Below, piece after piece: positions 1,941 through 59,486 of a stretch of 59,486 nucleotides of DNA. The notes under the pieces are model-generated. The model searched no databases. It was given only the letters and a program-made list of their open reading frames with translations, and had not been told where the DNA came from. The DNA comes from Pyrinomonadaceae bacterium (GTDB lineage: Bacteria; Acidobacteriota; Blastocatellia; Pyrinomonadales; Pyrinomonadaceae): NCBI GenBank assembly GCA_035276425.1, contig DATELP010000107.1, positions 1-59,486 of the forward strand. Reading direction: 5' to 3'. The position numbers and the translations under genes are program-made. Numbering within the stretch: position 1 is the first letter of the stretch; each line of letters starts with the position of its first letter.

Positions 1941-4900
1941 ATGAGGAGATTGTATCTTTCGCCACGCACCCTCTCAGCTACCCGGGCAGTCGCCTACCGC
2001 GCATTGATGGTGACCGCCGTACTAGCTTTGACCTGCTGGCTCTCTCTACCCGTAATGGGTCAATCAACGACGGGTACCCTTACGGGCCTCGTCACAGATC
2101 CACAAGGCGCCATCGTTTCGGGCGCTACCATCACTCTTATTAACAGTGCGACGAGAATCGAACTGAAATCCACTTCGAACGACTCGGGTGAATTCGTTTT
2201 CCCACAAGTGCCCCCGGGAAAATATTCACTCTCGGTTGAAGCGACCAACTTCAAGAAGGCGCTTGCTACTGATCTAACCGTCGAAGTAGGTACCACCTCC
2301 CGCACGACCGTTGTTCTTGAAGTCGGTTCAGTTACTGAACAAGTAACCATCACGGCGACTCAGGACATCGTTAACTCGACCACTCCGACGCTGACCAGCG
2401 TCATCAATACACGCCAGGTGCAAGACCTTCCGTTGCCAACGAGAAATCCTCTTGATTTGGCTGGTCTGCAACCCGGTGTCGCAGTTATTGGAGACGGTAC
2501 TCGCGGTTCATCCATCAGCGGTCTTCGTCAAACGTCAGTTCACTTGACGCAAGACGGCATCAACGCGATGGACAACTTCGTGAAGACGAGTTCGCTGTTC
2601 GCGCTCACTGCGCCGTCGTTGAACTCGACGAGTGAATTCAGTATCACCACCGGCACCAACGATTCAGGTTCCGGACGCGGCGTGGGCCAAGTGCGGCTTG
2701 TTACACGCGGTGGTACGAATGACTTTCACGGCGACGTGTTCTACCTGAACCGTAACGATTACTTCCAGGCCAACTCTTTCTTCAACAACCTGGCCGGTAC
2801 GCCAAGAGCTCGTCAGAACCAGCACTTCTTTGGTTTTGCTCTCGGTGGTCCAATGTTTGGCCCAAGGTTTGGTGAAGGTGGTCCGGCAATCTGGAACGGA
2901 CGCGATCGCGCCTTCTGGTTCTTCTCGTACGAAGGTTTCCGCGAGAACTTCTCGGCCACGCGTAATCGCACCGTGTTGACGGAACAGGCGCGAACGGGAA
3001 TCTTCCGTTACACCGGCGCGAACGGCCAGCTTACGTCAGTCAACCTGTTGACGATTGGCAACGCAGGCGCGCTGAATCCGATCACGTTGGCTCAGCTCAA
3101 CGCGATGCCGTTGCCGAATAACAACCTCAACGGTGACACGCTCAACACAGCGGGCTTCCGCTACAACGTGACCGGCAAAGACGTCAATGACAAATACGTC
3201 TTCCGTTACGATCACGTGCTGGTCCAGGATTCCGCCTGGGGTTCGCACAAACTCGAGTTTGTGTTCAACCGCGCTACGTTCAATCTCTCGCCGGATACCT
3301 TTAACGCGATCGAAGCTCCCTTCCCGGGCGGCATCGATGTGTTCCAGGCTTCGACGAGATCGTTGGCTACTATCGCGTTGCACTCGACATTCGGCAGCGT
3401 CACCAACGAACTCCGATATGGACGTCAGTGGGCTCCGGTTAACTTCCTGAGAGCCGCGCCTCCTGACAAGCCGTTCTTCACCACGTTCGCCGCTGTCACG
3501 AACTTCGACAATGTGCAAATGGGTCAAGGACGCGAAACGATCGTCACGCAGTGGATCGACAACATGGCGATTCCGAAGGGAGCGCACACGTTCCGTTTGG
3601 GTGTCGACTATCAACAGGTTTTCGCTGACACTTTCAACGACGCGGGTATCCACCCCAACGTTACTCTCGGAAGCAACACGCAGAACAGCAGCGGGATCAT
3701 CAATGGTGATTTCCCGAACCTGCCGGCCGGCGCTACGGGAAATAACATCGTGACTCGCGCGCAAAACGTTTTCGCGGACATCACGGGCTTCCTGGCCTCA
3801 GCTACCGCGACCTTCAACGTCACCACTCCGACGTCGGGATTCGTCCCGGGCGCCACTCGCTCTCGCATCTTCAAGCAACGCGACCTCGGTCTCTACGTGC
3901 AGGATCAGTGGAGAGCAAAGCCTAATCTGTCATTGAACTTCGGCGTGCGTTGGGATTACCAGGGCGTGCCGACGATTCCGAACGGCTTGGCGATTCAAGT
4001 CACCAACATCAACGATGTCTTTGGTGTCTCCGGACCGAACAATCTGTTCAATCCGAACGCTGCTCCGGGTTCCCAGGTTACCGGCCAAAAGGCGACGCTC
4101 GATTTTGTCAGCGGCGACACTGGCAAGGGCCTGTGGAATAACGACTGGAATAACTTCGCTCCCTTCTTCGGGTTTGCTTACTCGCCCGATTTCAAGGAAG
4201 GTTTTCTCGCGAAGGTATTTGGTCCAACCGGTACGAGCTCCTTCCGTGGCGGCTATTCCATCAGCTACCTGCACGATGGTTTCACCGTCGTCAGCAACGC
4301 ATTGGGTACTGGTACTACAAATCCTGGCTTGATCCAGGTTTCGTCGAATACCACACCTCAAGGCGTGCTGAGCGGAGGCGGAGTTCCATTAGTGACTCCT
4401 AGCTTCGTGATGCCGATCACCGATCGTCAGAACTTCCTGGCGAATCCAAACAACGCCTTGTGGGCAATCGAACCAAACCTGCGCATTCCATACGTGCAGC
4501 AATGGTCGTTTGGCTACGAGCGTGAGATTACTCGCAACATGGCATTTGAAATTCGCTATGCAGCCAACCACGGCGTTAAGGTTTGGCGCGCGAATAATTT
4601 CAACGAAGTTAACATCTTCGAAAACGGATTCCTCAAAGAGTTCATCAACGCGCAAAAGAACCTCGCAGCCCGCGGTGGCGCCAGCTTCGCGCCGGGTTGT
4701 GGCGGTTGCGTTGCGCTCCCGATCTTCGACAAGTTCTTTACTCAGGGTGGACTGCCGGCCGGCCAAACAACGGCTGGTCAGTATTCCAACGCAACGTCAA
4801 TCAGCAACTTGCTAAACAACAACGTCGGTACGTTGGCGAACACGTTGGCGTTCTCGACGACGTACAGACTGAATCGTGAGAACGTTGCGCTGGGTATTCC

Positions 4901-9803: not shown

Positions 9804-10757
9804 ATGTCCGAAATCGTCTTCTCCACTGTTGCTCACATCAAAGACGAATTAGCAAAAGTCATCGTCGGCCAGAACGACGCGATCGAACAGATCCTGATCG
9901 CTTTGCTCGCGGAAGGTCACGCGCTCATCGAAGGCGTCCCGGGTACGGCGAAGACGCTGACTGTCAAAACACTCTCGCGCATCATCAACGCCGGCTTCAG
10001 TCGAATTCAGTTCACGCCCGATCTGATGCCGTCGGACATCACCGGCACGAACGTCTTCAACATCGCAAACTCCACTTTCAATCTGCGGCGCGGTCCGATC
10101 TTCACCGACATCCTGCTCGCCGACGAAATCAATCGCACACCGCCAAAGACGCAAGCCGCTTTGCTCGAGGCGATGGAAGAACGACAAGTGACGATCGATG
10201 GCGACGCCTTTCCGTTGTCGCCGATCTTCACAGTACTCGCAACTGAGAACCCGATCGAATACGAAGGAACGTATCCGTTGCCCGAAGCGCAGCTCGATCG
10301 TTTTCAGTTGAAGATACTTTTGGATTATCCGGCTGAAGACGAAGAGCGTGAAGTGTTGGCGCGTTGGGACAGTGGCTTCAACGCGAAGCGACTCGATCAA
10401 GTCGACATTCAACCGCTGGGGGATCCGAGTGCGATCCTGCAATGTCGTGCTGCCGTTTCCCAAACGCGAATGGAACTTGGCGTGCAGCACTACGCAGTCG
10501 ATCTGGTGCGGCGTACGCGCGCACATTCATTCGTTCACTACGGTGCGAGTCCGCGCGCGTCCGTCGCGTTGCTCTTATGTTCGAAAGCGCTCGCCGCGAT
10601 TCGTGGACGAGTATTCACAACTCCGGATGACGTGCGCGACGTGGCGTTGCCGGTGCTTCGTCATCGACTGACCTTGCGCGCCGAGGCGGAGCTCGACGGG
10701 GTCACTCCGGACGCCGTGATTACCGACATTTTGGGGGCGGCGGAGGTCCCTCGGTAG
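9804..10757 (+). CDS. moxR: MoxR-family AAA+ ATPase
   Basis: Walker A is GVPGTAKT and Walker B is LLADEINR. The [20 protein letters not shown] and [22 protein letters not shown] motifs are classic MoxR. Confidence 0.92.
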
Positions 10758-16617: not shown

Positions 16618-17013
16618 ATGTTCAATAAACCTCTCGTGCGGTGTAGTGTGCGCATACTCGCGTTAGCCATCATGGTTGGAATGTTGGGTTTTCTTACAGC
16701 TACTGAAAAAGTAGAGGCCGGAACACTCGAACAGTGCGAGCAAGGCTTTGCTTTTTGTCTCTACGAAAATTGCAGAGGACTTTTTGGCCCCGACTATGAA
16801 GCCTGTCGTGATAGTTGCGATCTCTCATACGAATCGTGCCGGCTCGACAATAATTATCAACCGCCTCCGGCGCCATTTCCGGTGGAAGACCACAGCCGGG
16901 AAACCTGCATGCTCGCTACTAATGCTTGCGGGGAGCTTGAGGATTATCCCGATTCTTTGACCTGTTTCATGGAAATTCGCGCCTACTGTATTGCGACTTA
17001 TCCCAAACCCTAA
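16618..17013 (+). CDS. Secreted acidic 10-cysteine protein, paralog 1 of 3 (unrecognised family)
   Basis: Strong SD (AAAGAAAGG), a signal/anchor ending KVEAG, and Cys spacing conserved in all three paralogs. Confidence 0.8.
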   Translation: MFNKPLVRCSVRILALAIMVGMLGFLTATEKVEAGTLEQCEQGFAFCLYENCRGLFGPDYEACRDSCDLSYESCRLDNNYQPPPAPFPVEDHSRETCMLATNACGELEDYPDSLTCFMEIRAYCIATYPKP

Positions 17014-17046
17014 CTAAACATTTCTCGTCCAAAGGAAGGTGCAGTT

Positions 17047-17442
17047 ATGTTCAATAAACCTCTCGTGCGATGTACTCTGCGGCTATTCACGTTAGCTGTC
17101 ATGGTTGGCCTGCTGGGTTTTCTTGCCACTACTCAAAAGGTAGAGGCTGGAACACTCGAAGAGTGCAACCGAGCGTTCGGCCTCTGCCTTGTCACAGAGT
17201 GCAGGGGACTATCTGGCCAGGACTATTTGAACTGCCGCGATGCCTGCGATCGCTCTTATGAAGATTGCCGGTTTGACGATGATTATCATCCGGATCCGGT
17301 GCCGCTGCCGGTCGAAGACCATAGTCTGTCAGGTTGTTTGGAAGCTTGTCAGGCTTGCTTTGATCTACCCGACCAGATTGACGGTTTCTTCTGTAATGTC
17401 GAATGCCGGAAATACTGTTTTGACACTTATCCCAAACCCTGA
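17047..17442 (+). CDS. Secreted acidic 12-cysteine protein, paralog 2 of 3
   Basis: SD AAAGGAAGG. Same length and Cys framework as paralog 1, plus two extra Cys (positions 101 and 120). Confidence 0.8.
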   Translation: MFNKPLVRCTLRLFTLAVMVGLLGFLATTQKVEAGTLEECNRAFGLCLVTECRGLSGQDYLNCRDACDRSYEDCRFDDDYHPDPVPLPVEDHSLSGCLEACQACFDLPDQIDGFFCNVECRKYCFDTYPKP

Positions 17443-17495
17443 CCGTTACGGCATGACAAACTAAACAATCGCCCGTTCAAGAAAGGAAGGTACAG

Positions 17496-17888
17496 ATGTT
17501 TAAACCTCTCGTGCGGTGTACTCTGCGGCTCTTCACGTTAGCCGTTATGGTTGGCATGTTGGGCTTTCTTGTAACTACCGAAAAAGTAAAGGCTGGAACA
17601 CTCGAAGAGTGCGAACAAGCGTTCGCTTTCTGTCTTTACGAAAACTGTCCGGGACTTACTGGTCAAGCCTATGAGGATTGCCGTGATGCCTGCGACCTCA
17701 CTTACGAATCATGCCGTTGGAACGGTGATTACCAACCCGGTCCGGCGCCATTTGCAGTGGAAGACGATCGTTGGGAAACCTGTATGTCGGCCACTCAGAA
17801 TTGCTGGCTGCTCGAACAGCCAATCGATAGACTGATGTGTGATAAGGAAATCAGCGACTATTGCGATGAACACTACCCCAGACCCTGA
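17496..17888 (+). CDS. Secreted acidic 10-cysteine protein, paralog 3 of 3
   Basis: SD AAAGGAAGG and the same framework as the other two. Ends in YPRP where the others end in YPKP. Confidence 0.8.
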   Translation: MFKPLVRCTLRLFTLAVMVGMLGFLVTTEKVKAGTLEECEQAFAFCLYENCPGLTGQAYEDCRDACDLTYESCRWNGDYQPGPAPFAVEDDRWETCMSATQNCWLLEQPIDRLMCDKEISDYCDEHYPRP

Positions 17889-24834: not shown

Positions 24835-25821
24835 TCACTCTGCCAACGTTCCGTACACGCGCAAACGACTTACGCCGCCGTCCGGAAAGATGTTGAATCG
24901 CAGGTGCGAAACGACGCCGGCGTCGGTCAGTTCGCGATCGAAGTAATGTTGCGTGTGTGCCTGGAGTTTGGTGCGCGTCAGAACGCTGGTCCACACCAGT
25001 TCGTTAAGATCCGCGGCGCCGGAAACGTTGCACGCCTCGAGCGAACAGCTCTCGGGGAAGTTGCCTTTGAAGTGCGACGTGTCTACTTCGATCGCTTGTA
25101 TCTGTCCCGGCCGGGCGAGTTTGATGATGGCCCAATCGTGTCCTGGACCACGTCGCCGCTTTGTTTCCCATCCATCGCTCATGTCCGCGGCACGGCCCGG
25201 CATGATCAGATTGTGACGATGACCAAAGAACATGTCACTGCACGAGAGTACAAGCGCGCCGTTCTCCGCCGCCGCGAGATCGATGTGACCACCCGCGCGT
25301 TTGAGCCGTTCCCAATCGGGCACGACCTCACCATAAACGCGCAGCCGCGCGACACCGCCGTCGGGAAAAATTCGGAAACGAAGATGTGTGATGCGTTCGT
25401 TGTGTTCGATCGCAAACTCATTGCGCGAATCGCCGGCTAGCGGCGACTGCGGTAACAACGGCGCCCATTGGACCGACTCAGCAAGCAATTCTTCTTCGGT
25501 CGGCAGTCCTTCGAACGCAGCTCCGTCAAGCGAGCAATGCTCGGGATAGTTGCCGCGGAAAAAACTTGTATCAACTACGACGCCACGAATGATCCCCGCC
25601 AATCCCAAACGCAGGATGCACCAATCAAAGCCGGGTGTGCGGCGGCGACGGCTCTCCCAACCGTCCATCCACTTGCCACGGTCGGTGTACTTGCCTTCGA
25701 TAAAGATCGGGTCGCTCGCCTTTAACAAATTCTCTTTCGGCGCAAAGAAGTCATCGTTAGCGACGAGCACCGCACCGCCAACCTTTTCAGAAGCGAGATC
25801 GATAAGTTCTGTGAAGTTCAT
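24835..25821 (-). CDS. alc: Allantoicase
   Basis: Two internal repeats carrying GWESRRRR and GWETKRRR. The ATG at 25821 directly abuts the 20-nt repeat. Confidence 0.88.
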   Translation of the reverse strand: MNFTELIDLASEKVGGAVLVANDDFFAPKENLLKASDPIFIEGKYTDRGKWMDGWESRRRRTPGFDWCILRLGLAGIIRGVVVDTSFFRGNYPEHCSLDGAAFEGLPTEEELLAESVQWAPLLPQSPLAGDSRNEFAIEHNERITHLRFRIFPDGGVARLRVYGEVVPDWERLKRAGGHIDLAAAENGALVLSCSDMFFGHRHNLIMPGRAADMSDGWETKRRRGPGHDWAIIKLARPGQIQAIEVDTSHFKGNFPESCSLEACNVSGAADLNELVWTSVLTRTKLQAHTQHYFDRELTDAGVVSHLRFNIFPDGGVSRLRVYGTLAE

Positions 25822-26288
25822 AGCCACAAAAAGGCACAAAAAGACTTGTGTTAACTAACGATATACTTCCGTATTTCGAGCTTCGGAGCGCCGAAATTGA
25901 TTAACAGGCCATGCGTGATACGTGCGGCACGAAGATAACCCAGGAGTTGCGCTGTGTGGGCATTGATCAAGGCGTCACAACCCTTTATTTCACAGATTAG
26001 GCAATTTTCCACGAAGAGATCAGCGATTAGTAGACCAAGTATTGTTCCATCTTCGTCAAACACCTTCATTCGTTGCTGTTGTTCAGCTCGTATGCCCCTT
26101 TTCCGGAGTCGGTTTGCGAGAGCGTTCTCGTAGATCTTCTCGTTAAATCCGCTTCGCAAGTAATTGTGAATATCAAAGCTGGTTTCTCGAATTACGTCGC
26201 ATAGTGTGAAGATGCTATGGCTGTGAGGATCTGCCGCCATACAAGATACTTCCTTTTTCTAACTGATTTTGTGCCTCTTTGTGGCTAT
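25822..26288 (-). mobile_element. Putative miniature insertion: GxxExxY gene bracketed by 20-22 nt inverted repeats
   Basis: AGCCACAAAAAGGCACAAAAAG (25822-25843) and TTTTGTGCCTCTTTGTGGCT (26267-26286) are inverse complements at 19 of 20 positions and enclose only the 129-aa gene. Confidence 0.4.
25851..26240 (-). CDS. GxxExxY protein (PD-(D/E)XK nuclease superfamily-like)
   Basis: GFNEKIYENAL gives the GxxExxY motif. DLFVENCLICEIKG and the C-terminal GLLINFG fit the family as I remember it. It has its own SD (AAGGAAG). Confidence 0.8.
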   Translation of the reverse strand: MAADPHSHSIFTLCDVIRETSFDIHNYLRSGFNEKIYENALANRLRKRGIRAEQQQRMKVFDEDGTILGLLIADLFVENCLICEIKGCDALINAHTAQLLGYLRAARITHGLLINFGAPKLEIRKYIVS

Positions 26289-27576
26289 CATATATTTTTC
26301 TCCCACGAAGAAAAGTTTTTTCTACAACTCCGCTTAATGATTCACCTTCATAAGGCGTGAGTTTGTGGCGATGTTCCAGGTGCGCTGCGTCGACGATGAA
26401 TTCTTTATTCGGGTTCCAGAGGATGATGTCTGCGTCGCAACCCACAGCGATCGAGCCTTTGCGAGACGTTAAAGAGACTTGGCGCGCGGTATTTGTGCAA
26501 AGCCAGTTCGTTAAGTCGCGCAACGAAAAGCCGCGGCATTGTGCTTCGGTCCAGGTCACCGGGAGACGCAGTTGCAACGACGCGATGCCGCCCCACGCCG
26601 TCATGAAATCGCCGGACTCACGCAGCTTCATGCTCACAGGACAGGGCGAATGGTCCGACACGACCATGTCGATCGTTCCATCAGCGAGACCCCGCCAAAG
26701 CTTTTCGCGGTTCTCACTCTCGCGGATCGGCGGACAACACTTGAACTCCGTAGCACCATGCGGAATCGTCTCCGCCGCGAAGTGAAGATAGTGTGGACAC
26801 GTTTCGGCAGTAATCTTCACACCCGCAGCCTGCGCCTCGCACAGCAGCGGCAACGCATCCGACGAAGAAAGATGAACGATGTGTACGCGCGTACCGAATT
26901 CACGACTCAAACGAATCATCAATTCGATGGCTTCATTCTCCATCGAGCGCGGCCGCGAATTAAGAAACGCTTCGTAATCAGTTCCTTCGGTAGCCTTCAC
27001 CGGTACCGGAAGCTCAGCATGCACGATCAGCATCGCCCCAATCCGTGAAAGTTCCGGCATCGCGACGCGTAGATTGTCTTCAGTGACGTGCGGAAACTCA
27101 TCCACACCTGACGGAACCAGAAAGCACTTGAACCCAACAACACCCGCCGCAAACATCGGCGCCAGTTCCGACGTGTTCCCCGGCACAACACCACCCCAAA
27201 ACCCGACGTCGACGAAACAGTCATCCTTTGCTGTATCGAGTTTTGTTTTAAGTCCAGCCAGTGTTGTTGTCGGAGGAATCGAGTTGAGCGGCATGTCGAT
27301 CAGCGTCGTGACGCCACCCGCAGCCGCTGCGCGCGTTGCGGTGCGAAATCCTTCCCACTCAGTGCGTCCCGGAGAGTTGATGTGAACGTGCGTATCAACC
27401 AAACCCGGCATCACCACCGCATCATCATCGGCCTCGACGATCTCACAGTTTTCCAAAACGTCGTCAAACGGCCGCACCGCAACGATCTTCTCGCCGCTGA
27501 CATGAATCGACGCTGGACCAATCGCGTCCGCCGACACCACCGTTCGCCCACGTATGATCAGATCGACAGTCGACAT
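26215..27576 (-). CDS. allB: Allantoinase (cyclic amidohydrolase)
   Basis: GLVDTHVHINSPGRTEWEGFRTATRAAAAGGVTT plus later His/Asp metal-ligand regions. The last ~23 codons run through the repeat and overlap the GxxExxY start. Confidence 0.88.
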   Translation of the reverse strand: MSTVDLIIRGRTVVSADAIGPASIHVSGEKIVAVRPFDDVLENCEIVEADDDAVVMPGLVDTHVHINSPGRTEWEGFRTATRAAAAGGVTTLIDMPLNSIPPTTTLAGLKTKLDTAKDDCFVDVGFWGGVVPGNTSELAPMFAAGVVGFKCFLVPSGVDEFPHVTEDNLRVAMPELSRIGAMLIVHAELPVPVKATEGTDYEAFLNSRPRSMENEAIELMIRLSREFGTRVHIVHLSSSDALPLLCEAQAAGVKITAETCPHYLHFAAETIPHGATEFKCCPPIRESENREKLWRGLADGTIDMVVSDHSPCPVSMKLRESGDFMTAWGGIASLQLRLPVTWTEAQCRGFSLRDLTNWLCTNTARQVSLTSRKGSIAVGCDADIILWNPNKEFIVDAAHLEHRHKLTPYEGESLSGVVEKTFLRGRKIYDSHKEAQNQLEKGSILYGGRSSQP

Positions 27577-30862: not shown

Positions 30863-30915
30863 GGCCACAAAGAAGCACAAAGATTTGGTGAACACCTTTG
30901 TGCCTTTTAGTGGCT
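30863..30915. repeat. Inverted pair of the 20-nt TTTGTGCC..GTGGCT motif with a 14-nt spacer
   Basis: GGCCACAAAGAAGCACAAAG (30863-30882) and TTTGTGCCTTTTAGTGGCT (30897-30915) match at 15 of 19 positions as an inverted repeat. The right copy abuts the ATG at 30916. Confidence 0.75.
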
Positions 30916-31551
30916 ATGAATTCAACAACTATGGAGAAACAACTCTTTCAAGCGCATCCGTGGCATGGCGTGAGTCCGGGACCGAGAAGTCCCGAATCGC
31001 TCAATGCTTACATCGAGATCGTCCCGACCGATGCAGTGAAGTACGAGCTCGACAAAATATCAGGCCACTTGCGGGTCGATCGTCCGCAGCGTTTCTCGTC
31101 GATGTGCCCGACGCTTTACGGTTTCATCCCGCAAAGCTATTGCGGCCGTGAGGTGGGCGAACTGGTTGAACGGCGCACCGGACGAACCGGCATCGACGGC
31201 GACAAAGATCCGATGGACATCTGCGTATTGTCTGAGAAGACTTTCGCCCAGGGAAATTTCTTCGTGCGCGCGCGGCCGATCGGCGGGTTACGGATGATCG
31301 ATGGAAACCAGGCTGACGACAAGATCATCGCTGTGCTGGAAGACGATCTTGCTTACGGTCGCATTATGGAAGTTTGCGACGTGCCGCAGGGACTCGTCGA
31401 TCGGTTAAAGCACTACTTTCTGAGTTACAAACAGCTTCCGGGTGACGAGCCGAAGAAAGTTGAGATCACGCACGTTTACGATCGGACAGAGGCGCTCGAC
31501 GCGATCACGCGCAGCTTCCGTGATTACAAAGAAGAGTTTGGCCACGGATAG
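30916..31551 (+). CDS. ppa: Inorganic pyrophosphatase (family I)
   Basis: HPWHG, YIEIVPTDAVKYELD, DGDKDPMDICVL and DDKIIAV motifs. An alternative start exists at 30931 (MEKQ). Confidence 0.85.
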   Translation: MNSTTMEKQLFQAHPWHGVSPGPRSPESLNAYIEIVPTDAVKYELDKISGHLRVDRPQRFSSMCPTLYGFIPQSYCGREVGELVERRTGRTGIDGDKDPMDICVLSEKTFAQGNFFVRARPIGGLRMIDGNQADDKIIAVLEDDLAYGRIMEVCDVPQGLVDRLKHYFLSYKQLPGDEPKKVEITHVYDRTEALDAITRSFRDYKEEFGHG

Positions 31552-31570
31552 ACACGGATTTAACGGATCG
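31541..31570 (+). repeat. Three tandem 10-nt CACGGAT units overlapping the ppa stop codon
   Basis: GCCACGGATAGACACGGATTTAACGGATCG. Confidence 0.6.
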
Positions 31571-35635: not shown

Positions 35636-35709
35636 GGAGCGCGGGCGGCTCGCCCGCAAAGGATCAAACCGGGCGCGGTTGTAACTTGCGGGCGAGCCGC
35701 CCGCGCTCC
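35636..35709. repeat. Perfect 24-bp GC-rich inverted repeat with nested hairpins
   Basis: GGAGCGCGGGCGGCTCGCCCGCAA (35636-35659) and TTGCGGGCGAGCCGCCCGCGCTCC (35686-35709). Each arm is itself a 7-bp hairpin (GCGGGCG / CGCCCGC). Confidence 0.8.
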
Positions 35710-35734
35710 GTTGGCTAGGCGCGACCTTTAATGC

Positions 35735-35755
35735 CTCTTGTGCCTTTTGGTGGCT
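35735..35755 (+). repeat. 20-nt TTGTGCC..GTGGCT motif copy, 22 nt upstream of murA
   Basis: The sequence is CTCTTGTGCCTTTTGGTGGCT. Confidence 0.7.
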
Positions 35756-37472: not shown

Positions 37473-37509
37473 ATCCACAGATTACACAGATTCTGCGTAA
37501 TCTGTGGAT
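37473..37509. terminator. Bidirectional terminator hairpin between convergent HIT and pckA genes
   Basis: Perfect 13-bp stem ATCCACAGATTAC / GTAATCTGTGGAT, with an A-run upstream and a T-run downstream. The arm is made of CACAGAT units. Confidence 0.75.
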
Positions 37510-56918: not shown

Positions 56919-56942
56919 ATCAGCAAGCCAAGGGGTAGAATT

Positions 56943-56972
56943 GTGCCACAAAAAGGCACAAGAGGCACAAGG
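56943..56972 (-). repeat. Three-unit copy of the CACAAAr motif family upstream of the ROK gene
   Basis: The plus strand reads GTGCCACAAAAAGGCACAAGAGGCACAAGG. On the gene strand it reads CCTTGTGCCTCTTGTGCCTTTTTGTGGCAC, 25 nt before the ATG. Confidence 0.7.
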
Positions 56973-57004
56973 CAGGTTGTAAAACAGGACCAGGCAAGAC
57001 CGGT

Positions 57005-59396: not shown

Positions 59397-59420
59397 AGCC
59401 ACAAAGAGGCACAAAAAAGG
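59397..59420 (-). repeat. Solo copy of the 20-nt motif, 2 nt after the GHMP kinase stop
   Basis: The plus-strand sequence is AGCCACAAAGAGGCACAAAAAAGG. Confidence 0.7.
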
Positions 59421-59423
59421 GCG

Positions 59424-59486
59424 CTCGTTTTGAGTTCAACCTTCAGGTTGTCTTCTTAAGAGCAAGCTAAAGCTTGAACTCAAAAC
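59424..59486 (-). repeat. REP-like Y-shaped element, copy E (touches window end)
   Basis: The reverse complement reads GTTTTGAGTTCAAGCTTTAGCTTG-12 nt-CAACCTGAAGGTTGAACTCAAAACgag. Confidence 0.8.

Follow-up and report, generated by a model that had tools for sequence, protein, structure and literature searches.

Miniature inverted-repeat transposable elements (MITEs) that duplicate TA, of the IS630/Tc1-mariner type and including the Correia/NEMIS elements of Neisseria, have terminal inverted repeats of 20 to 30 nt and end beside a TA, and their small, co-transcribed, gene-less copies lie at gene boundaries and derive from a gene-bearing copy by internal deletion. In 23S rRNA, intervening sequences consist of a small open reading frame (ORF) enclosed by inverted repeats, set in a transcribed, essential context that is left intact. 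For repetitive extragenic palindromic (REP) sequences and their doublets (REPINs), the gene for the REP-associated tyrosine transposase (RAYT) is usually single copy, vertically inherited, and accompanied by its own repeats (PMC5581495, PMC8266576). Here we describe a 469-bp unit in a 59,486-nt contig of a Pyrinomonadaceae bacterium (GCA_035276425.1, contig DATELP010000107.1; this whole stretch, at its full length, is referred to below as the window), in which a gene of the GxxExxY family stands between two inverted arms at the junction of the allantoinase (allB) and allantoicase (alc) genes. From comparative sequence evidence we lean, on balance, toward reading this unit as the single gene-bearing "master" of a family of inverted-repeat elements, organized like REPIN/RAYT but with a putative PD-(D/E)XK nuclease as its enzyme and with matching arms dispersed elsewhere.

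The two arms (25820-25841 and 26267-26288) are 22 nt each, 95% complementary, and separated by 425 nt (Table 1). A preliminary description of this DNA, made from the letters alone, had reported a GxxExxY gene bracketed by inverted repeats in a 467-bp unit with nothing else in it and with its own Shine-Dalgarno sequence, and this account stands: one ORF alone occupies the space between the arms, and an AAGGAAG Shine-Dalgarno-like stretch lies 9 nt ahead of its ATG. The junctions were also described correctly, in that the alc ATG abuts one arm, while the allB ORF reads through the other and overlaps the start of the GxxExxY gene by 26 nt. The alc ATG is preceded by the pyrimidine-rich arm only, and no Shine-Dalgarno-like sequence is present there. 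The G+C fraction of the element is 0.43 to 0.47, versus 0.55 to 0.60 in its flanks. A consensus scan found no promoter-like or terminator-like site inside the element, which must be co-transcribed, and no second GxxExxY gene was found in the window. The repeat had been taken for a single 20-nt sequence; it does recur as an arm, but it is really a tandem array of 9- to 10-nt units, namely AGCCACAAAR, AGGCACAAAA, and often a third, GxCACAAAA. The 20-mer AGCCACAAAAAGGCACAAAA has 6 matches in the window at up to 3 mismatches, where 0.00 are expected from 100 dinucleotide-preserving shuffles. Chance or a local artifact can be set aside, given that none of the 100 shuffles contained any match and that the contig was independently assembled twice (L001, L002). 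Besides the element, five further sites in the window carry the same arm, and a more diverged seventh arm (30863-30882) completes the hairpin at 30863-30915. The gene-less inverted pair and solo copies mentioned in the preliminary description are thus located as a doublet and a set of unpaired arms, and gene-less copies turn out to be far commoner than gene-bearing ones.

The protein belongs to the GxxExxY family by both available profiles (PF13366, E = 2.5e-30, 105.6 bits with a cutoff of 22; TIGR04256 "GxxExxY," E = 8e-33, 113.2 bits with a cutoff of 35); PF13366 is its sole domain, and it matched no recognized transposase family. Across 86 diverse sequences, residues G31, E34, Y37, D74, E84, K86, Q98, Y102, N115, F116, and G117 are invariant, and we take the E, D, ExK, and QxxxY set in this protein to be the motif set of RecB-like nucleases. 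An AlphaFold model (86-sequence alignment; pLDDT 92.9, pTM 0.85) has the fold alpha-alpha-beta-beta-beta-alpha-beta-beta, and its best neighbors in the PDB are Cas4 SSO0001, lambda exonuclease, MGME1, and the nuclease domains of AdnAB/AddAB. The protein thus models as a minimal RecB/Cas4-like PD-(D/E)XK nuclease with an intact active site; a sequence search of solved structures gave no match at E ≤ 1. The family is large, with 6,924 clusters at 50% identity reaching E ≤ 1e-3. PF13366 has been listed as "Unknown," with multiple transfers (PMC3424549), and in one paper CRISPRone gave a Cas4 call where the authors' own pipeline reported a GxxExxY domain only (PMC8934634). We also considered a defense-system or phage protein and ruled this out: there was no credible PADLOC match and no PHROG match, and GxxExxY matches numbered 0 in 50,697 phage records and 5 in 72,556 plasmids.

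The ratio of nonsynonymous to synonymous substitution (dN/dS) for the GxxExxY gene is 0.03 to 0.09, the same as for allantoicase, which indicates that the gene at allB/alc is under purifying selection and functional. Elsewhere the family includes decayed copies, with premature stops in five loci (L013, L051, L063, L073, and L074) and, in L011 and L020, a second arm pair that encloses just a 3′ remnant of the gene. In 50 of 52 loci, the gene has a lower G+C content than the host flank; together with the decayed copies, this low G+C is a sign of foreign or selfish origin. The upstream arm doubles as coding sequence for the N terminus of the protein in some clades, for example, MNANEREL.. from ATGAACGCGAATGAA... 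Several predicted proteins of 250 to 390 aa contain two GxxExxY-like stretches, and one predicted 1,811-aa protein (P0431) contains 12 separate ones; these may be tandem gene copies or ORFs miscalled across repeats.

The association between gene and arms extends far beyond this locus. A scan of one genome per species yielded 74 loci with relatives of the GxxExxY protein, and GxxExxY loci in this sample span more than 10 phyla. Within ±220 nt, the inverted-repeat score of the flanks exceeded the 99th percentile of 632 control positions from the same loci for 56 of 68 GxxExxY genes, and several of the remaining genes have arms farther out; what had been proposed from a single locus, that GxxExxY genes occupy inverted-repeat-bounded units, is recurrent family-wide. 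All relatives with 55 to 91% identity carry AGCC[A/G]CAAAAAGGC[A/G]CAAAA, in the plus orientation shortly upstream and in the minus orientation shortly downstream, and their hosts are as varied as Acidobacteriota, Verrucomicrobiota, Planctomycetota (including Scalindua and Phycisphaerae), Geomonas, Desulfatiglandales, Acidimicrobiia, Kiritimatiellota, Armatimonadota, and Caldithrix. Relatives with 30 to 48% identity, from Chloroflexota, Nitrospirales, Prevotella, Geobacteraceae, Omnitrophota, Elusimicrobia, and others, are also flanked by inverted arrays of tandem units, but with other unit sequences (e.g., GAACGCGAAT, GRCGCAGAT, GAACGCAAAT, ACGCCGAT, GAACACAGAT, and AGAACAWAAG). A neighbor-joining tree of the proteins groups them by arm unit type regardless of host phylum, with CRCAAAR, CGCGAAT, CGCAGAT, CGCCGAT, CACAGAT, and Prevotella types each matched to a protein clade. 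Across phyla, window-type arms are 85% identical to those of the window, while the gene is 63% identical at the nucleotide level. RefSeq genomes give further examples with their own inverted arms: the GxxExxY gene separates fabD from fabG in Sphingomonas parapaucimobilis, and radA from a gene for a FAD protein in Bacteroides finegoldii. Orthologous proteins are WP_347090946 in Sphingomonas and WP_032839887 in Bacteroides. Insertion sites of different lineages share no sequence except the arms of the element itself. Other cargo is rare and was seen twice, in both cases with the same arm type: a DUF4279 gene in L016 (3812-4361), in a unit that adjoins a GxxExxY cassette, and a DUF6928 gene in L105 (1610-2582), where the second arm is degenerate.

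Gene-less copies form the larger part of the repeat population. A scan of metagenome contigs with GCCACAAANAGGCACAA recovered at least 120 stretches, 624 kb in all, from soil Acidobacteria with the window arm type. Writing > and < for the two arm orientations, the stretches listed contain 76 > < doublets shorter than 300 nt, 79 unpaired arms, and 3 arm pairs that are 300 to 700 nt apart; the 47 doublets that we inspected measure 43 to 196 nt. All three of the longer pairs hold a complete GxxExxY gene, and all three lie between allB and alc. The doublets do not appear to be decayed GxxExxY genes, a possibility that we rejected when no profile match was found in 40 spacers of at least 40 nt among these stretches, save for the three full genes. 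Nor did we find several GxxExxY loci with window-type arms in Pyrinomonadaceae, as P0051, P0289, L149, L184, and L190 are all at allB/alc. The ends of the elements abut genes: very often the stop codon of a converging ORF is a TAG made up of a T and the first AG of the arm, and at other ends a gene starts within 0 to 40 nt. In the window, ppa, murA, the gene at 56919, and the GHMP kinase gene show this same pattern. Around GxxExxY loci, matching arms more than 900 nt from the gene number 13 in 382 kb for the window type and 10 in 25 kb for the Prevotella type. Doublets also differ between genomes at orthologous intergenic sites, one site being filled in L107 and empty in L189 and another having a doublet in L160 versus a different, GC-rich palindrome in L092; at a third site both L092 and L160 have a doublet, with unrelated spacers.

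Table 1. Arms, doublets, and adjoining genes in the window (positions in the 59,486-nt stretch)
Feature	Position	Strand	Remarks
Whole gene-bearing element (arm, GxxExxY gene, inverted arm)	25820..26288	-	469 bp
Upstream arm (gene sense), AT-AGCCACAAAG-AGGCACAAAA	26267..26288	-	Allantoinase ORF reads through, encoding ..SHKEAQ..
Downstream arm, inverted copy, 2 units	25820..25843	+	End GTGGCT (gene strand), then directly the allantoicase ATG
GxxExxY gene, 129 aa	25851..26240	-	Sole ORF between the arms
Allantoinase (allB)	26215..27576	-	TIGR03178, E = 2e-172; ORF ends inside the element, native C-terminal tail and stop lost beside the arm
Allantoicase (alc)	24835..25821	-	TIGR02961, E = 2e-136; ATG (25821) abuts the arm
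Gene-less doublet, same arm type, 13-nt spacer	30863..30915		Between divergent xdh-like and ppa genes; right end GTGGCT-ATG
Unpaired arm, same type, 3 units	35730..35755	-	About 25 nt upstream of murA start
Unpaired arm, same type, 3 units	56944..56975	+	Divergent intergenic region; 25 nt ahead of the minus-strand gene starting at 56919
Unpaired arm, same type	59397..59416	+	2 nt past GHMP-kinase stop; window ends 70 nt on, so a partner is possible
Doublet of a different arm type (ATCCACAGAT TACACAGAT / inverted)	37473..37509		Exactly between a stop codon and the next ATG
Unpaired arm, third type (TTGGCCACGGAT AGACACGGAT TTAACGGAT)	31538..31568	+	Contains the ppa stop codon TAG

The insertion between allB and alc can be followed through a series of relatives. 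The order allB-GxxExxY-alc occurs in three Pyrinomonadaceae metagenome-assembled genomes (MAGs) and another Acidobacteriota MAG (L003 to L006), at ten metagenome places of P0051 (81%-identical protein), and in L209 and L213. GxxExxY and allantoicase broadly lose identity to the window together, with respective values of 91/91, 81/85, 78/89, 72/80, 69/81, and 69/80%. In the closest pair, synonymous divergence is 0.52 for GxxExxY versus 0.50 for its neighbor; it is about 3-fold higher for GxxExxY in two other pairs, which could reflect weaker codon constraint or occasional gene replacement. The empty allB-alc junction and the native allantoinase C terminus that the preliminary description suggested looking for were both found in relatives. 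In L207 and L208 (allantoicase 86% identical to that of the window) the empty site reads ..HLLL-TAA/ATG.. after a native allantoinase tail, and in L210 to L212 (80%) a 10-nt spacer without an arm separates the genes. The TAA/ATG joining of allB and alc in empty-site relatives suggests translational coupling of the two genes. No similarity exists between these empty alleles (..CTCTTGTAA/ATGGAC..) and the insertion sites of other lineages. In the allantoicase tree, the root has filled lineages to either side, the filled L209 is the sister of L210, and L207 is placed among filled lineages. The simplest history would be one old gain followed by at least two clean losses or allelic replacements, the alternative being repeated site-specific gain. 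The element entered before the radiation of the Pyrinomonadaceae-like lineages, and the insertion is old and mostly vertically inherited. Conservation of the allB-GxxExxY-alc order with identical junctions in distant relatives had been named in advance as evidence against mobility; the order is indeed kept, but the junctions are not identical.

These junctions also indicate where the element went in. At loci with a native tail (L005, L006, L209, and L190), the allB stop is the TAG or TAA that begins the arm, and the empty site has TAA at this position, which places the insertion point at the TA of the allB stop. The window allantoinase tail, ..SHKEAQNQLEKGSILYGGRSSQP, is not native, since relatives end in ..DDGAFAPRPNGVLLL or ..DDGPGGWANTPMGHLLL followed directly by the stop; the earlier suggestion that the read-through tail is a product of the insert is borne out by this difference. 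Loss of the native tail has the same breakpoint, GATGAG/AGCC, in L077, L078, L184, and L004, with 3 nt less in the window and L003. This common breakpoint points to a single deletion beside the arm, after insertion, that created the read-through tail. In the allantoinases of the window, L003, L004, and L077, a tail encoded by the arm and the start of the inserted gene (26215-26283) replaces about 15 native residues; the tail-altered enzyme is still under purifying selection. The end of the native tail is apparently not needed.

An alternative account, which we consider unlikely, treats the doublets as an independent repeat family moved by another factor, into which the GxxExxY gene homes by cutting and repair or by recombination of a circle. 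Such homing would suit the clean empty and filled alleles at one site and the vast excess of doublets over gene-bearing copies among the stretches listed, and it would also accommodate nested or multiplied arms, as in L062 (five > and six <) and L029 (> > > > gene < <). The arrangement > < gene > < in L007 and L034 is what recombination between a circle and a doublet is expected to leave, and PD-(D/E)XK homing endonucleases of similar size exist (I-Ssp6803I), which we count in favor of homing. Against this, the empty allB/alc site (TAA/ATG) has neither doublet nor arm, and the gene-bearing unit therefore needed no resident doublet there. Further, gene-bearing copies of the window type all occupy one locus despite plentiful target doublets among the stretches listed, which argues against active homing in these genomes, and in lineages of the CGCGAAT type arms are seen just beside the gene.

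The structure of the arms bears on a second alternative, in which they act in RNA: the stem they form in a polycistronic transcript would be cut by RNase III, in the manner of 23S rRNA intervening sequences with small ORFs, releasing or insulating the ORF, and the doublets would be leftover processing or stabilizing hairpins. Across loci, an arm is a tandem array of 2 to 4 units of 9 to 10 nt (up to 12 units in L057), with unit spacings of 10 nt (181 cases) or 9 nt (70 cases) and an outer end of (T)TA/GCC. The outermost unit is unlike the inner ones, with AGCC, AACC, or ATCC outside and AGGC or GAAC inside. At 236 arm ends of the window type, the two bases outside GCC are TA in 48%, with T at -2 in 64% and A at -1 in 69%, and conservation fades past -3. 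A role in RNA would agree with the position of elements exactly between a stop and the next start codon, with the missing promoter-like and terminator-like sites that oblige the element to be co-transcribed, and with the folding potential: paired arms can form stems of 20 to 30 bp, and doublets fold strongly, at -21.6 to -22.9 kcal/mol as single-stranded DNA (z of -8 to -10), although the window doublet reaches -12.4 kcal/mol (z of -2.9) and a single arm does not fold (-2.2 kcal/mol, z of -0.15). What makes this role improbable is the pattern of mismatches, among which G·U-compatible changes should be favored had the arms been preserved for pairing in the mRNA. In 49 cassettes the two arms are 88.5% identical (1,463 of 1,653 aligned positions), and the 190 mismatches comprise 50 wobble-compatible transitions, 51 pairing-breaking transitions, and 89 transversions; with no excess of wobble pairs, each arm stays near the consensus rather than near its partner. 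About half of the arm sites among the stretches listed are unpaired; tandem 9- to 10-nt units and a specific outer end are not required by a stem but are required by a protein-binding array; and Rfam gave no match in the window at the gathering threshold, none in the element at E ≤ 1, and none in 9 other loci. The constraint on the arms would thus act on DNA rather than on RNA pairing, and the mismatch pattern, the regular spacing of 9 to 10 nt, and the co-variation of unit and protein clade point to recognition of the DNA by the protein. The arms themselves can be amplified: in L029 (4169-4371 and 6125-6265) an arm lies within each of the 61-nt direct repeats, L062 (3172-3418 and 4250-4482) has 5 and 6 arm copies at intervals of about 38 nt on either side of the gene, and the 12 tandem units of L057 lie within one arm (9806-9924).

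Very improbable, finally, is a nonmobile arrangement in which GxxExxY is a host DNA-binding or nuclease factor with the arms as operator-like sites of its regulon and the copies at its own gene autoregulatory, for while the stable, vertically inherited locus under strongly purifying selection, the position of arms near start and stop codons, and the doublet kept at one orthologous site (L092 and L160) as its spacer turned over would all agree with it, a single protein clade, its arms nearly identical, is spread over many phyla at unrelated sites within conserved operons (allB/alc, fabD/fabG, and radA/FAD gene), gene G+C is below that of the host in nearly all loci compared, pseudogenes and truncated copies exist, the close relatives L207 and L210 are without the gene, and doublets are present or absent at orthologous sites.

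Returning to the reading of the unit as the gene-bearing master of a repeat family, the nuclease looks like a partner or driver of the repeats, as the unit sequence co-varies with the protein clade and every arm pair 300 to 700 nt apart among the stretches listed, an unbiased sample, holds a GxxExxY gene. "Cargo," the part that the preliminary description had given to a traveling GxxExxY gene, is probably the wrong role, and the unit is not recent at allB/alc. We envisage that the nuclease would recognize its own repeat units, perhaps (this is a guess) with several subunits bound at sites one helical turn apart, and would cut extruded hairpins or the arm ends and their vicinity; repair or recombination by the host might then spread, homogenize, and maintain the arms. 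The outcome would be an enzyme gene, here for a hydrolytic nuclease, at a single, vertically inherited locus between its own repeats, together with a dispersed gene-less population. In the lineage of the window, the TA of the allB stop, at the junction of two apparently coupled genes, is where the element came in; purifying selection has since preserved it as a co-transcribed part of the operon, with clean loss or replacement in at least two lineages.

Several observations weigh against this interpretation. The structural matches of the model are weak (TMq 0.45 to 0.58, E about 1e-3), and the matched enzymes are for the most part nucleases that process ends or single strands. In a RecB/Cas4-like core of 129 aa, no module for DNA recognition is obvious, and strand-transfer chemistry is lacking. 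The support for binding or cutting of the arms by the protein is all comparative. Some loci have other layouts, either > < gene > < (L007 and L034) or < gene >, and the gene at the allB/alc locus has not moved over a long time. The doublet spacers among the stretches listed are unrelated to one another and so give no sign of recent replicative bursts from one master, unlike typical MITEs or REPINs. At CGCGAAT-type loci, the sequence out to ±10 kb showed no matching arms other than those at the gene (0 in 105 kb). The check for target-site duplication that the preliminary description proposed yielded a possible TA and nothing beyond it, and as TA is self-complementary, its duplication is indistinguishable from a 2-nt extension of the inverted repeat.

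We also put forward, tentatively and as the less probable part of our proposal, a broader generalization: GxxExxY proteins may be the catalytic core of an unrecognized class of selfish elements, in which a RecB/Cas4-like hydrolytic nuclease of about 125 aa reads inverted arrays of 9- to 10-bp units and, with host repair, excises, spreads, and homogenizes them without a DDE, HUH, serine, or tyrosine recombinase, leaving palindromic doublets, free of any gene, at the gene boundaries of at least 10 phyla and a clade-specific repeat "code." We found no description of the GxxExxY-repeat arrangement, including the arm sequences, in the searchable literature, in which subscription journals are covered in part; the three papers there that mention GxxExxY do so in another sense. 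The proposal supplies a testable hypothesis of function for the large orphan family GxxExxY/PF13366 and, if true, a second system of enzyme plus repeat population, independent of REPIN/RAYT and with different chemistry. It would explain small genes that interrupt conserved operons (allB/alc and fabD/fabG), the extended or truncated C termini of their neighbors, and spurious ORFs that read through arms, and the co-variation of clade and unit would form a natural recognition series that is open to decoding.

The window contains further repeats and features. The arm type of the doublet at 37473-37509 flanks other GxxExxY clades elsewhere. A perfect 24-bp GC-rich inverted repeat (GGAGCGCGGGCGGCTCGCCCGCAA ... 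TTGCGGGCGAGCCGCCCGCGCTCC) lies at 35636-35709, upstream of murA and beside an unpaired arm, and a similar long GC-rich palindrome is present in L092 (about 3650-3770), where the orthologous site of L160 has a window-type (type A) doublet; these GC-rich palindromes may constitute a second intergenic palindrome family. A 13-nt inverted repeat (GTTTTGAGTTCAA ... TTGAACTCAAAAC) at 59429-59486 follows the arm at 59397 and reaches the end of the window, perhaps as part of an element that is truncated there. Three tandem ORFs of 131, 131, and 130 aa without a Pfam match (16618-17888, plus strand) sit between thioredoxin-like and DUF58/VWA genes, and the same trio is called in L001.

Among known systems, the 23S rRNA intervening sequences differ from the element, which lies between protein genes, has no RNA-pairing signature, and encodes another ORF family. 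With integron cassettes and attC sites it shares promoterless single-gene units and doublets that are imperfect palindromes with conserved ends and a variable center of variable length, but the GxxExxY gene lies between two opposed arms instead of ahead of one 3′ attC; no integrase, attI, or cassette array was found in the window or the loci examined, nor an integron integrase among window ORFs or the called genes of L001. Homing endonuclease genes, including I-Ssp6803I, are alike in being small nuclease genes of foreign composition that are present or absent at one site with clean empty alleles; GxxExxY sites, however, share no sequence, and dispersed gene-less repeats are not a feature of homing genes. 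The Cas4/RecB/lambda-exonuclease clade has the same fold and the same E, D, ExK, and QxxxY motifs, whereas the GxxExxY protein, at about 125 aa, is roughly half the size and lacks the Fe-S cluster cysteines, and its gene has no CRISPR or helicase context. The GxxExxY element resembles MITEs in its terminal inverted repeats, TA-adjacent ends, small gene-less copies that lie at gene boundaries and share the transcripts of their neighbors, internally deleted derivatives, and presence or absence of copies at orthologous sites (doublets in L107/L189 and L160/L092; gene-bearing unit empty in L207 and L210). Unlike MITEs, the GxxExxY element has no DDE or other transposase domain, its arms are arrays of tandem units, and its copies share their arms and not their interior. 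REPIN/RAYT differs in its enzyme, a HUH/Y1 (IS200/IS605-like) transposase in place of a RecB/Cas4-like PD-(D/E)XK nuclease, and in its repeat, a self-complementary REP with a GTAG-type head in place of a tandem array of 9- to 10-nt units; the spacers of GxxExxY-type doublets, moreover, are not conserved. In its workings the GxxExxY system nonetheless comes closest to REPIN/RAYT: in both, the enzyme gene is flanked by its own inverted repeats, a larger intergenic population of gene-less inverted doublets exists beside one vertically inherited locus, and repeat sequence and enzyme clade co-vary.

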